A DNA stretch of 12,937 nt, taken from UHGV virus genome UHGV-0262016; one strand, 5' to 3'. The position numbers were made by a program, and so were the translations under genes. Source of the stretch: a virus. The first letter of the stretch is position 1, and every line of letters begins with the position of its first letter. Shown piece by piece: positions 2,729 to 11,579 of the stretch. The notes under the pieces are model-generated. The model was not told where the DNA came from. It saw nothing but the letters and a program-made list of their open reading frames with translations, and searched no databases.

Positions 2729-2783
2729 AAAAAGGGCGGACATCAGCCAGCAATGAAACTGATGCCGCCAAAGGTACAAATCA
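2729..2783 (-). ncRNA. dicF: DicF-like small RNA with intrinsic terminator
   Basis: Minus-strand RNA 5'-UUGAUUUGUACCUUUGGCGGCAUCAGUUUCAUUGCUGGCUGAUGUCCGCCCUUUUU-3'. An 11-bp GC-rich stem with one bulge (plus coordinates 2734-2768) is followed by U5. It resembles the K-12 DicF sequence as I recall it (shared UUUGGCGG.AUCAGUUU and CCGCCCUUUUUAAAGUGAAUUUUGUGAUG). Sits immediately upstream of dicB as in Qin. The 5' end is approximate. Confidence 0.6.
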
Positions 2784-3110
2784 ACATGGAGTGTTGTAGC
2801 GGGGTTGTCACTTAAGCGTATGGTCAACCTGACAACCCGGTGTCCTCAACGGGGAAGGAATAACCCCGCCATACTTACCGCCGCGCCATTTCGCGGAGTG
2901 CCACAACCGGAAGCGCACGGTCGACGAAAATTTAACGACAGGCTATCTATGAACCAGCTACCTCGCCGTGCGCTTTCGCGTTATGGTCTGACTTTTCAGG
3001 GAAATATCCTTTCAGTAAACTGTCAGTGCCGGATGCTCACCCGTGTCCGGCGCACGCACTCCACCTCACCCGTGGAGAACTCCTTAATCACCAACCCTCA
3101 GGAGGGTGAA

Positions 3111-3386
3111 ATGTCGACTGAAAATGATGAAATCATTAACTCCCTGATACGCCAGATTAATAATTTTGATAAAGCATTGCAGCATGCTGCGGCGCGTAGC
3201 GATATAACTCTTTTAGCAATTTCATTTCTTGCATCTGTTATGGATAAAAATGAAGTCGTACGACAGAGTCTTGTTGATTATATCGACTCGCTTCAACCCG
3301 GCACTTTCAATCATGAGAGCTTCAATCATGAGAAAGAGCATGTTAAGTCTGTAATTAATTCTCTTATTTTGAATCAAAAGAATTAA
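3111..3386 (+). CDS. Hypothetical 91-aa protein, AT-rich, opposite strand to the surrounding operon (sieB-equivalent slot)
   Basis: ATG at 3111 with SD GGAGG 5 nt upstream. Product MSTENDEIINSLIRQINNFDKALQHAAARSDITLLAISFLASVMDKNEVVRQSLVDYIDSLQPGTFNHESFNHEKEHVKSVINSLILNQKN. The long in-frame extension in track ORF 2805..3386 is Arg-rich and GC-rich, so judged non-coding. No family recognised. Confidence 0.55.
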   Translation: MSTENDEIINSLIRQINNFDKALQHAAARSDITLLAISFLASVMDKNEVVRQSLVDYIDSLQPGTFNHESFNHEKEHVKSVINSLILNQKN

Positions 3387-3684
3387 TGCTTTTTGTTGCA
3401 AAGTAATTTTCAAGGGGTTCTATTCGAATCCCTTTCTTTTTCATTAACAAGCCAAACCCCTTATCAATGATGTCCATTAGTTCCAGGAAGTATTTTTCAT
3501 GTAAATCCTGGTTATCAGAGAGCTGCTTCTCTTCGTACAGACCGATAAAGGCACGACGCACGTTACCGGATATAGTATCGATGGTTTCTTTTTCTACGGT
3601 ACTCAGGTCAAGAGTCGCCAGTTGGGAACGAACTATATTCGCTGCCATTTCCTGGAATTGCATTGGTAAATCTTTAAATTCCAT
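3364..3684 (-). CDS. Hypothetical 106-aa protein, AT-rich; 3' end overlaps the convergent plus-strand gene by 23 bp
   Basis: ATG at 3684 with SD GAGG 6 nt upstream, 22 bp downstream of the ydfC-like stop. Product MEFKDLPMQFQEMAANIVRSQLATLDLSTVEKETIDTISGNVRRAFIGLYEEKQ... No family recognised. Confidence 0.5.
   Translation of the reverse strand: MEFKDLPMQFQEMAANIVRSQLATLDLSTVEKETIDTISGNVRRAFIGLYEEKQLSDNQDLHEKYFLELMDIIDKGFGLLMKKKGIRIEPLENYFATKSINSFDSK
3412..3442 (+). terminator. Intrinsic terminator for the plus-strand 91-aa gene
   Basis: AAGGGGTTC / GAATCCCTT stem (9 bp including one G-U pair), 5-nt loop, then TCTTTTTC. Lies inside the 3' end of the convergent minus-strand ORF. Confidence 0.55.
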
Positions 3685-10013: not shown

Positions 10014-10408
10014 CCACTTTTACCAATAGCAAACTAACAGACGAATACGTTTCAAATGCAACGTTGATTCGGCTCATTCTGTGGGCTGACCAGCACAATA
10101 GCCATTATGTTGTAGCGGCTCTGCGCGAGCTACAGGAGCGCCGCAAGGCTGATAGTGTGCCTGTAGAAATCAACGACGACATGGCTTACGCATTCCACCA
10201 TGCGCTTTCTGACTCATCGCCTGGCTCTGATGAAATCGAAGAAATTAAAACCGGGTTGCGTGCTGCCTTTGCCAATGTCACCGTCCAGCCGGTGCTGATA
10301 GTGCCTGATGAAATGGATTTGCTTACCTGCCATCTCGACGGCGTAACTGAAACATATGCTGATGGCTGGAACGCCTGCCGCGCCGCCATGCTTAAGGGAG
10401 ATAAATAA
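10010..10408 (+). CDS. Hypothetical 132-aa protein
   Basis: ATG at 10010 overlaps the HNH stop (ATGA). Acidic product, no family recognised. Confidence 0.55.
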   Translation: MTTFTNSKLTDEYVSNATLIRLILWADQHNSHYVVAALRELQERRKADSVPVEINDDMAYAFHHALSDSSPGSDEIEEIKTGLRAAFANVTVQPVLIVPDEMDLLTCHLDGVTETYADGWNACRAAMLKGDK

Positions 10409-10971
10409 TGATTAATCGAACCAAACTGGAACACATTCTCGAATATGCCAGGCAGCAGAAATGTATTGGGCAACTTTGTAAAATTCCACCAGGAGATATG
10501 GTTGAAATCGTGGAAATGGCCATGCGTAAGGCTGGCAACTCTCCGGTAACTCCGGCTCGCCTGCCTGGTGGTTTCACCATTGAGGATGCGAAGGAGTTAC
10601 ATGAAGACCTGGTTCGCAGCCACATAAGCCAGGCTTTAAGTGGTGAAAAGATGAAAAAGAACGATCGCGATGCTGATTTGCGCTGGATTCATGGCGTTAT
10701 AGTACAGGCAGCGTGGTTTGTGAAAGCTTCACTGGATGCGTTGCCTGAACCGCTGCGGGAGGAGAAGGGAGGAAGTGCCAACTGTACTGCCAGTCATGGT
10801 ACAACCGACAATCCACCAGTACCAGGCAAACAGACTGACGAATTAACCATGCTGGTTAAGCAATTGGTCAGTCAACTGAAGAAAGTGAAGCCGGACTGTA
10901 AATTGCCGGATAAGGCGATGGACTACCTGAAGCGGAACGAACTGATAAGTGCGGAGGATGTTTTGCGATGA
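10408..10971 (+). CDS. Hypothetical 187-aa protein
   Basis: ATG at 10408 overlaps the previous stop (TAATG); SD AAGGGAG 7 nt upstream. Confidence 0.55.
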   Translation: MINRTKLEHILEYARQQKCIGQLCKIPPGDMVEIVEMAMRKAGNSPVTPARLPGGFTIEDAKELHEDLVRSHISQALSGEKMKKNDRDADLRWIHGVIVQAAWFVKASLDALPEPLREEKGGSANCTASHGTTDNPPVPGKQTDELTMLVKQLVSQLKKVKPDCKLPDKAMDYLKRNELISAEDVLR

Positions 10972-11087: not shown

Positions 11088-11423
11088 GAAGGAAACAAAA
11101 CAGAAACAACAATTGCCGTTACCTGTTGTTACCATGGCAAGTAAACGCATCTCAGGCGAGCGCATTGCACCGTTCTGACGCAGATAAATTAGCCTGGATA
11201 GATGGTGCTGGCAATAAAAAATAGCGTTTTCTTATCGGTGTCGGTAAGATTGCTGCGGGTGCTTGAGGCTGTCTGCCTCGGGCATGCCACTGTAAGGCAG
11301 GCAGAGAAAAGCCCCAGTTAACATTACGCGTCCGGCAAGACGCTTAACATTAATCTGAGGCTCCCTATGCATGACAACATCAGGTTAGCCTCTTACGTGC
11401 CGAAAGGCAAGGAGAAGCAGGCT

Positions 11424-11579
11424 ATGAAGCAGCAAAAGGCGATGTTAATCGCCCTGATCGTCATCTGTTTAACCGTCATAGTGACGGCACTGGTAACGAG
11501 GAAAGACCTCTGCGAGGTACGAATCCGAACCGGCCAGACGGAGGTCGCTGTCTTCGTAGACTACGAATCTAGAGAGTAA
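11424..11579 (+). CDS. hokD: Hok/Gef-family type I toxin (51 aa), HokD/RelF-like
   Basis: Product MKQQKAMLIALIVICLTVIVTALVTRKDLCEVRIRTGQTEVAVFVDYESRE is a Hok-family signature, nearly identical to HokD/RelF as recalled. SD GGAG 9 nt upstream. An in-frame upstream ATG at 11367 (SD GAGG 6 nt upstream) gives a 70-aa mok-like extended frame. Confidence 0.8.
   Translation: MKQQKAMLIALIVICLTVIVTALVTRKDLCEVRIRTGQTEVAVFVDYESRE

Follow-up and report, generated by a model that had tools for sequence, protein, structure and literature searches.

The window studied here is the whole 12,937-nt stretch of the virus genome UHGV-0262016, and the element under study lies in its GC-rich, hairpin-dense segment 2790–3100. 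The minus strand of this segment encodes a compact RNA fold of about 115 nt, a four-way junction with a pseudoknot (4WJ). The fold is widespread, supported by covariation and apparently undescribed. The DNA that carries it belongs to a transcript already known, the untranslated part of dicBF that serves as precursor of the small RNA (sRNA) DicF. By homology and gene order, the segment is almost certainly the untranslated ydfC–dicF spacer of a Qin-type lambdoid prophage, transcribed from the minus strand within the early-left (dicBF) operon.

A four-way junction with a pseudoknot

A covariance model, covariation and the minimum free energy (MFE) fold define the domain, which is built from the following elements.

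2793–2907, minus: 4WJ domain, ~115 nt, four-way junction and pseudoknot
2907–2900 (GUUGUGGC) with 2800–2793 (GCUACAAC), minus: helix P1, which closes the domain
2896–2881, minus: arm A, CCGCG/CGCGG
2879–2877 (GGU) with 2841–2839 (ACC), minus: base of arm B, 3 bp
2868–2850, minus: variable hairpin of arm B, CGGGG/CCCCG, following an internal loop
2838–2802, minus: arm C, GGGUUGUCA/UGACAACCC
2874–2869 (GUAUGG, 5′ side, in the internal loop of arm B) with 2823–2818 (CCAUAC, in the loop of arm C), minus: 6-bp pseudoknot

The helices are separated by just 0–3 unpaired bases, and many of the unpaired bases of the domain are invariant across homologues. The hairpin loop of arm B is always rich in C and U (UCCUU, CUCC). 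Covariance model R1 scores 152.9 bits at 2910–2787 on the minus strand, which is the sole strong copy in the window. The MFE fold of 2916–2734 gives the same junction independently, and MFE folds of about ten divergent lineages recover it as well.

Two further pairings were considered and set aside. An alternative long-range helix (GCGGGGUU/AACCCCGC) is unsupported by the phage P1 lineage, whereas arms B and C are supported by it, and pairing of the arm B loop (UCCUU) with the GAGGA downstream of this loop shows no covariation. A second match to R1 at 10495–10629 on the plus strand reaches 13 bits (rough E = 0.007), contains several non-canonical pairs and lies inside the open reading frame (ORF) 10408–10971. 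In view of its weak score and its location in an ORF, we treat it as a chance match. Two copies of the 9-mer GUUGAGGAC are found on the minus strand, at 2842–2850 within the fold between arms B and C, and at 2554–2562 as the ribosome-binding region of dicB. Either copy could form pairs with the C/U-rich loop of arm B, which may be chance; no covariation for such pairing is observed inside the fold.

Compensatory changes in the fold

The covariation set comprises 132 loci with 74 distinct sequences. Comparative alignment, which a preliminary description of the segment had suggested as a check, reveals compensatory changes in 13 of the 36 pairs of the 2793–2907 fold. In the model-based alignment these 13 pairs show changes on both sides in 53 cells, and the 36 pairs are 96.7% paired. 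None of 500 shuffled controls reaches any of the covariation measures, and sliding the partners against each other gives at most 5 double-change pairs. A plain MAFFT alignment leads to a similar picture, with 95.3% pairing and double changes in 10 pairs.

The pseudoknot is 99.1% paired across the 74 distinct sequences, and its second pair occurs as U-A (69), U-G (2) and C-G (3, in the phage P1 lineage). Most copies have GGGUUGUCA/UGACAACCC as arm C, the phage P1 lineage has GAGUUGCCA/UGGCAACUC and Izhakiella has GGGUAACCA/UGGUUACCC. Arm B is found in at least eight different paired forms. Lineages at 77–88% identity retain every helix through compensatory changes; their flanks and DicF part diverge or are replaced. 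The pairing pattern also discriminates between the strands, with 142 G-U against 45 A-C cells and 95.3% against 91.3% canonical pairs, favoring the minus strand.

Distribution of the fold

To collect homologues, viral contigs and a single genome from each species were scanned for the pattern, and the matches were then checked with BLAST. The genome-wide pattern scan produced many chance matches in GC-rich genomes, and BLAST confirmed matches in Enterobacterales only. The positive genomes belong to Escherichia (coli, albertii and ruysiae), Shigella, Citrobacter, Trabulsiella, Erwinia and Izhakiella. Searches of phages and plasmids also turned up a Salmonella phage, together with about 500 phage-plasmids similar to P1/P7 that come from Escherichia, Salmonella, Klebsiella and Shigella. 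Across these lineages the element is 122–129 nt long. It is present once per locus in 78 loci, and once in the complete Ayreon genome when searched with the filters off.

When the window is aligned with the phages cdtI and P1, the alignable sequence shrinks to about 115 nt, and the surroundings have all changed. In phage P1 and Izhakiella the 4WJ scores 85–121 bits, yet the Rfam DicF model finds nothing. In the sequences compared, the 4WJ is accordingly better conserved than DicF. The P1 genome contains an annotated ‘dicF-like region’ (AF234172, 68791–68892), which overlaps the P1 copy of the 4WJ (L004 2488–2609) downstream of Pban. This annotation covers the 3′ half of the domain and the terminator, and the Rfam DicF model again gives no match there. 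As judged from sequence, what phage P1 and Qin share is the 4WJ and not an antisense RNA.

Constant companions of the fold

A hairpin followed by a U-tract is found downstream of the 4WJ in all 84 distinct contexts, starting 11–62 nt after helix P1. By a strict terminator criterion, 70 of these 84 contexts qualify, compared with 19 of 300 segments drawn at random from these loci. In Qin-type phages the terminator hairpin after the 4WJ is DicF. Since phage P1 and Izhakiella lack an Rfam DicF match, the partner of the 4WJ is a terminator rather than the DicF antisense sequence. The linker between the 4WJ and the terminator varies in both length and sequence.

On its upstream side, the 4WJ is directly preceded by a long duplex in every lambdoid lineage examined. 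In the window this corresponds to a fifth, longer hairpin that the preliminary description had overlooked, with arms at 2908–2920 and 2966–2978.

2905–2986, minus: long imperfect hairpin (stalk of ribonuclease III (RNase III) type), about 19 bp with a variable apical part, the full extent to which the two arms can be extended; from repeats, folds and alignment

The 3′ strand of the stalk overlaps the 5′ strand of helix P1 by 3–4 nt. The stalk sequences differ by lineage: CAUAACGCGAAAGCGCACGG/CCGUGCGCUUCCGGUUG in the Qin type, CAACGAUGAGGGCAUUU/AAGUGCUCUCAGCGUUG in the cdtI type, CACAACGAUGAGAGCAUUG/CAGUGCUCUCUUCGUUGUG in the Erwinia/Izhakiella type and GCACUC/GAGUGC in the L045 type, with apical inserts of about 35 to about 100 nt. 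Phage P1 lacks the upstream duplex, and there the annotated −10 box of the C1-controlled promoter Pban puts the start of transcription ~25 nt ahead of the fold. In the phages cdtI and Ayreon and in Stx2c phages, the order is the cI terminator, a strong PL-like promoter (TTGACA-16-CATAAT), an ORF-free leader of ~280 nt, the fold, a terminator and the first PL genes.

The Erwinia, Izhakiella, Trabulsiella and F1055-like lineages (L237, about 2520–2600; L230, L066 and L228) carry an insert of ~40 nt in the terminator hairpin. It contains CAGGAGGAG...AUAAUG, a Shine–Dalgarno sequence and start codon buried in the hairpin. In the same lineages, two or three additional hairpins lie in the about 100 nt that are enclosed by the upstream stalk.

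The segment as the ydfC–dicF spacer

The segment matches the ydfC–dicF spacer of Qin in E. coli K-12 (NC_000913.3 1649042–1649381) with 97.4% identity in K-12-derived strains (query 11–314), and phage Tritos with ~99% identity. The homology to K-12 stops near ~3096. Among 5426 complete E. coli genomes, 4429 contain a match to the spacer. The genes of the minus strand follow the order ydfA/ydfB/ydfC-like, a 106-aa gene, the segment, a DicF-like RNA, an STnc100-like element, dicB, a ydfD-like gene and an exonuclease, and the repressor and cro/cII-type genes are located further along the window. Relative to K-12 Qin, two genes are inserted between ydfC and the spacer, the 106-aa gene on the minus strand and a 91-aa gene on the plus strand. 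The neighbors of the 4WJ are listed below.

3925–3707, minus: ydfC
3364–3684, minus: 106-aa gene, phrog_6937, convergent with the 91-aa gene with a 23-nt overlap
3111–3386, plus: 91-aa gene, antisense to the early-left operon, with its ATG at 3111, one base before 3112
2783–2792, minus: linker between the 4WJ and the DicF-like RNA; the Rfam DicF alignment starts at 2782
2734–2782 (2729–2782 when listed with its terminator), minus: DicF-like RNA, RF00039, 38.7 bits against a gathering score of 48
2570–2722, minus: STnc100-like element, RF02076, 34.3 bits against a gathering score of 47
2547–2359, minus: dicB
2416–2159, minus: ydfD-like gene

The DicF-like neighbor is real yet scores below threshold, its sequence having diverged from that of K-12 Qin, and no RF00039 match lies inside 2790–3100. 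A terminator scan identifies its hairpin at 2766–2739, together with CGCCCUUUUU, as the intrinsic terminator that follows the 4WJ.

The STnc100-like element is closed by a 14-bp duplex, UUUGUGAUGCGGUG/CACCGCAUCACAAA (2722–2709 with 2583–2570), which is conserved in K-12 and in phiSTEC1589. This duplex sits where RNase III reportedly makes the 3′ end of a 72-nt DicF in K-12. The 91-aa gene has a strong Shine–Dalgarno sequence and its own terminator-like hairpin (3412–3434, plus). Elsewhere in the window, a full-length match to the sok antitoxin RNA is found at 11257–11429 on the plus strand (RF01794, 109.6 bits, E = 1e-24), indicating a hok/sok-type type I toxin–antitoxin locus in the same prophage.

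Processing in K-12 and its counterpart in the window

The processing of this transcript has been studied in K-12 (PMC10448788). Reverse transcription PCR across ydfC–dicF, Northern blots and primer extension show that the RNA is co-transcribed with ydfABC, in transcripts from dicBp that span ydfA to dicF, and that study found no internal promoter. The ydfABC–dicF transcript is the main band, and a longer transcript becomes visible only upon inactivation of RNase E. The 190-nt DicF species owes its 5′ end to RNase III, and the 53-nt DicF depends on RNase E (PMC10448788).

The sequence shown in Figure S1 of this source is the K-12 version of window ~2950–2735. Counting 190 nt back from the 3′ end of DicF in K-12 leads to L002 2746, equivalent to window ~2913. 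This position falls within the long hairpin's 3′ arm, with about 6 nt left before helix P1 begins. The distance from the end of the 4WJ to the 5′ end of DicF is 16 nt in K-12. The RNase III substrate hairpin (2905–2986) and the linker are present and conserved in the window, and the cleavage itself is known from K-12. By homology, the RNase III cut that makes the 5′ end of the 190-nt species is expected near 2913, and by analogy with K-12 the RNase E cut that makes the 5′ end of DicF is expected in the linker 2783–2792.

The locus in the window and that of the 190-nt DicF species in K-12 Qin therefore share position, orientation, sequence (97–99% identity in the spacer), the RNase III hairpin and the DicF terminator. 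The 190-nt species and the long untranslated region of this operon are associated with Faubladier 1990, Balasubramanian 2016 and Ragunathan 2023. The suggestion in the preliminary description that the segment is a DicF precursor region is borne out, as it is the homologue of the K-12 spacer, where an RNA of this sequence is processed to the 190-nt DicF species. The literature covered on K-12 dicBF treats the upstream 137 nt as precursor only, and describes no fold, no function and no conservation beyond E. coli and Shigella.

Coding and plus-strand readings of the segment

Open frames exist on both strands of the segment. A frame of 193 codons on the plus strand (2805–3386) runs into the 91-aa gene, and a 36-codon ORF on the minus strand (2918–2808) lies inside the region of the RNA fold. 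The initial view that neither strand has a convincing ORF thus needs qualification; it holds insofar as no frame is preserved in the homologues. That the segment might be a decayed or unrecognized protein gene finds some support in the plus-strand frame, which is free of stops over 109–111 codons in the window, K-12 and Tritos, and in the match of the minus-strand ORF to phrog_8854 (E = 1e-20). The latter family has 59 positions and no assigned function in PHROGs.

A Pfam scan of the 91-aa protein and of all seven stop-free segments gave no match. A PHROG scan of the 91-aa protein, its 102-aa upstream extension and six of the seven stop-free segments gave no match either, leaving phrog_8854 as the only hit. 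The 36-aa frame ends differently or is frameshifted in many homologues and is absent in phage P1, while the plus-strand frame is broken in L001. Indels of 1–5 nt occur inside arm B, those of 1 nt in a stem that remains paired. The length differences (122–129 nt) and the 1-nt indels in arm B shift both frames while pairing persists, which speaks against a coding region, and the comparison of frames together with the Pfam and PHROG scans finds no remnant of a gene. We regard the protein-gene reading as extremely improbable. As the 36-aa frame is not preserved among homologues, phrog_8854 is probably an artefact of ORF calling over an RNA.

The preliminary description had also proposed a structured 5′ leader for the plus-strand 91-aa gene (3111–3386). 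The segment, read as leader or promoter region, does lie directly upstream of this gene, folds well on the plus strand (z = −4.8) and holds the Shine–Dalgarno sequence of the gene within its last hairpin. However, the conserved block ends at ~3096–3110 and occurs without the 91-aa gene in K-12, Tritos, cdtI and phage P1, the excess of G-U over A-C cells points to the minus strand, and a promoter scan found no sigma-70-like site on the plus strand within 2790–3100. Conservation independent of the gene, the strand bias of pairing and the absence of a plus-strand promoter in that scan leave hardly any weight on this proposal, and we abandon it.

Relation to known RNAs

To place the fold among known RNAs, the window and the phage P1 and Izhakiella versions were searched against Rfam 15, both at gathering score and at E up to 10. 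The Rfam scan, which the preliminary description had named as a check, returned no family covering 2790–3100; none covers the 4WJ in any of the three versions, and the sub-threshold matches are those expected by chance. RF00039 (DicF) and RF02076 (STnc100) are neighbors on the same transcript, and neither model covers the segment. ARAGORN found 0 tRNA or tmRNA genes in the window, and no tRNA or tmRNA family of Rfam matches the 4WJ. A resemblance to segments of 5S rRNA, noticed by eye, was dropped because nothing matched the 5S model, even at E up to 10. A literature search by sequence and related terms, with the early DicF papers and the P1 genome paper outside its range, retrieved no description of the fold.

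A parallel is provided by the put RNAs of phage HK022 (putL and putR), processive antiterminators that act in cis and suppress termination through the zinc-binding domain of RNA polymerase β′, to which they bind. Like the 4WJ, these are structured RNAs located just after the early promoters of N-less lambdoid phages and before terminators. The put RNA is ~70 nt long, consists of two stem-loops with a short triplex, and occurs in two copies per phage (PMC9378689). In contrast, the 4WJ is ~115 nt long, combines a closing helix with three arms and a pseudoknot, and is found in a single copy per phage, and we found no sequence similarity between the two. When the 4WJ was considered as a put RNA, it shared the position between early promoter and terminator but neither the size and stem-loop arrangement nor the presence of two copies. 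As two defining features of put are missing, the 4WJ is not a put RNA.

Aptamers of the SAM-I type are compact four-way junctions in which a loop forms a pseudoknot with a strand of the junction or of an internal loop, and they have invariant unpaired bases and a downstream terminator. The likeness of the 4WJ to these aptamers is one of architecture only; no overlapping expression platform, sequence similarity or Rfam match was found. As a candidate transcriptional riboswitch, the 4WJ has the conserved aptamer-like fold and lacks a terminator platform that would be mutually exclusive with it.

Proposed function of the four-way junction RNA

DicF, a textbook prophage sRNA and among the first sRNAs described, blocks cell division, and the dicBF operon has effects on division, on metabolism, on resistance to phages and on the virulence of enterohaemorrhagic E. 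coli. We propose that the conserved product of the locus may be a discrete processed RNA of about 190 nt with the 4WJ as its functional core, a reading that comparative sequence evidence places close to an even call, if anything slightly below. Three observations speak for the 4WJ as the core: it is more conserved than DicF, it has kept 13 covarying pairs and many invariant unpaired bases, and the 5′ end of the RNA is always near helix P1, set by the stalk in the lambdoid lineages examined and by the Pban start in phage P1.

According to this model, the polycistronic minus-strand RNA would be cut by RNase III in the long hairpin 2905–2986, and its 3′ end would be set at the DicF terminator or by a second RNase III cut in the next structured element. 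The resulting ~190-nt RNA would consist of a short 5′ tail, the 4WJ (2793–2907), the linker and the DicF hairpin, and RNase E may then release the 53-nt DicF by cutting in the linker. These cleavages are shown in K-12 and expected here. Phages would thus make an RNA of 4WJ and terminator through RNase III processing or, in phage P1, directly by initiation. Because the 3′ strand of the stalk contains the 5′ strand of helix P1, cleavage of the stalk should free this strand and license the fold. The invariant unpaired bases, compact junction and pseudoknot point to a specific partner, and the folded domain would bind a protein, for example RNA polymerase, a ribonuclease or an RNA chaperone. The 3′ hairpin would terminate transcription, stabilize the RNA and, in some lineages, act as the DicF antisense. 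The earlier idea of an independent structured RNA is in this respect half right: the 115-nt domain has its own covariation and a wider spread than DicF, but it is co-transcribed with the operon and has its own promoter only in phage P1.

Several observations weigh against a discrete RNA with the 4WJ at its core. The alignment is dominated by close relatives (effective sequence number 1.4), so that the compensatory changes come from perhaps 8–10 independent lineages, and double changes are absent from arm A. The 183-nt unit has an MFE z-score of only −1.8. To our knowledge, the published phenotypes of DicF are all attributed to the 53-nt RNA, and no stable 4WJ fragment of ~137 nt is reported in the literature. 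In phage phiSTEC1589-Stx1c (L238, about 2440–2510), the stalk, the DicF-like hairpin and the STnc100-like element are kept and the core of the 4WJ is gone, through a clean deletion from within the 5′ strand of helix P1 to just before its 3′ strand; a covariance-model search of this phage finds no 4WJ copy. The domain is therefore dispensable in at least one phage, and deletion variants are also found in Shigella and in some contigs.

Three Shigella flexneri copies (L128 1631–1754, L135 5220–5343 and L207 1453–1576) lack the 3′ arm of the long hairpin and the 5′ strand of helix P1. The loss apparently occurred by recombination between CGCGAAA repeats in the 5′ arm of the hairpin and in arm A, and these copies look to be decaying.

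Among the other functions that can be envisaged, the strongest competitor is that the 4WJ may act in cis as an antiterminator of the early operon in the manner of HK022 put, its nascent fold making RNA polymerase read through the first terminator and thereby enabling dicB, exo and xis in the Qin type, the PL genes in the cdtI/Ayreon type, and the tRNAs and ban in phage P1. The domain always lies 11–62 nt before a terminator hairpin in an early operon, ahead of most or all genes, and its distance from the promoter, ~25 nt from the Pban start in phage P1 and ~280 nt from PL in cdtI and Ayreon, is like that of putL and putR (PMC9378689). An N gene is neither annotated nor detected in the phages that carry the element, and the one N-encoding relative seen, phiSTEC1589-Stx1c, cleanly lacks the fold with both flanks kept. 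Folding predicts no alternative antiterminator pairing, in keeping with an RNA that modifies RNA polymerase. We nevertheless consider this function unlikely, given the differences from put in size, fold and copy number, the substantial termination at DicF in K-12 (PMC10448788), and the conserved upstream RNase III stalk, which an antiterminator does not need and which is left unexplained. The link to the absence of N also depends on weak detection of N and a single counter-example. A less probable explanation is that the 4WJ is a passive scaffold for processing or stability, which positions RNase III and RNase E, blocks Rho loading or protects the ends, and that its conservation reflects the recent spread of one DNA module. 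Most copies are indeed >95% identical, the domain lies between known processing sites, no covariation is seen in the upstream hairpins and some prophages tolerate the loss of the 4WJ. The lineages at 77–88% identity, however, keep all helices by compensation while flanks and DicF diverge, many unpaired bases are invariant, and a four-way junction with a pseudoknot far exceeds what a nuclease guide or a Rho block requires. In addition, phage P1 has no polycistronic precursor upstream of the domain.

An orphan riboswitch, in which the 4WJ is a ligand aptamer that controls the adjacent terminator and links the early operon to host physiology, appears very unlikely to us. Its build is aptamer-like: the four-way junction is compact and accompanied by a pseudoknot, bases of junction and loops are invariant, a single peripheral arm varies, and a terminator lies directly downstream. 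Yet MFE folding of about ten lineages yields the 4WJ and the terminator as separate modules, with no shared alternative pairing between helix P1 and the terminator, and the linker varies in length and sequence. The neighboring genes give no clue to a ligand, and no association with metabolic genes was seen. We also considered the wider possibility that the 4WJ represents a new class of phage early-operon regulatory RNA, acting on the transcription machinery or sensing a host signal; comparison of the loci makes this conceivable, though doubtful.

Composition and other hairpins of the segment

The four inverted repeats that the preliminary description had listed are all present at their coordinates, and the contrast that it drew between a GC-rich segment and AT-rich genes is confirmed, with a GC content of 0.53–0.56 over 2775–3075 and of 0.31–0.41 in the flanking genes. 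The region 2783–3111 (329 nt) is more stable than dinucleotide shuffles on both strands (z = −2.9 on the minus and −4.8 on the plus strand), and none of 100 shuffles is as stable. The repeats and the hairpins upstream of the stalk are the following.

2802–2810 with 2830–2838: GGGTTGTCA/TGACAACCC repeat, 100% complementary
2851–2867: GGGG/CCCC inverted repeat, seen in the sequence
2881–2896: CCGCG/CGCGG inverted repeat, seen in the sequence
3029–3050: CCGGA/TCCGG inverted repeat, seen in the sequence
2988–3026, minus: hairpin CUGAC...GUCAG with an internal stem, from fold and alignment; conserved, with no informative covariation
3051–3028, minus: hairpin GCCGGA...UCCGGC, from sequence, folds and alignment
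3077–3059, minus: hairpin CUCCAC...GUGGAG, from sequence, folds and alignment
3089–3108: hairpin CACCCUCCUGAGGGUUGGUG at the upstream edge of the spacer, from sequence and folds

In these upstream hairpins (2988–3108), none of the 42 predicted pairs shows double changes, the sequences being too alike for covariation. The motif CACGGGUGAG of the minus-strand RNA is found in or beside the loop of both hairpins in 3028–3077. On the plus strand, it reads as the decamer CTCACCCGTG at 3037–3046 and 3064–3073, 27 nt apart, and is nearly invariant in the homologues. The plus-strand side of the 3089–3108 hairpin holds the Shine–Dalgarno sequence (AGGAGGG) of the 91-aa gene.

Implications

Work on DicF treats the upstream 137 nt as an inert precursor, and it is this upstream part that is here the better-conserved half. 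Should the fold be merely a processing scaffold, the finding would shrink to a well-annotated part of a known transcript. If it is functional, it bears on the stability of the 190-nt DicF species and on the selection that keeps the locus in about 80% of E. coli genomes, as well as on how N-less lambdoid phages and the ban operon of phage P1 pass their first terminator. If the 4WJ does represent a new class of early-operon regulator, it would constitute an N-independent early switch, with a fold unrelated to HK022 put, that decides on passage of the first terminator, and DicF would be merely a lineage-specific use of its terminator hairpin.

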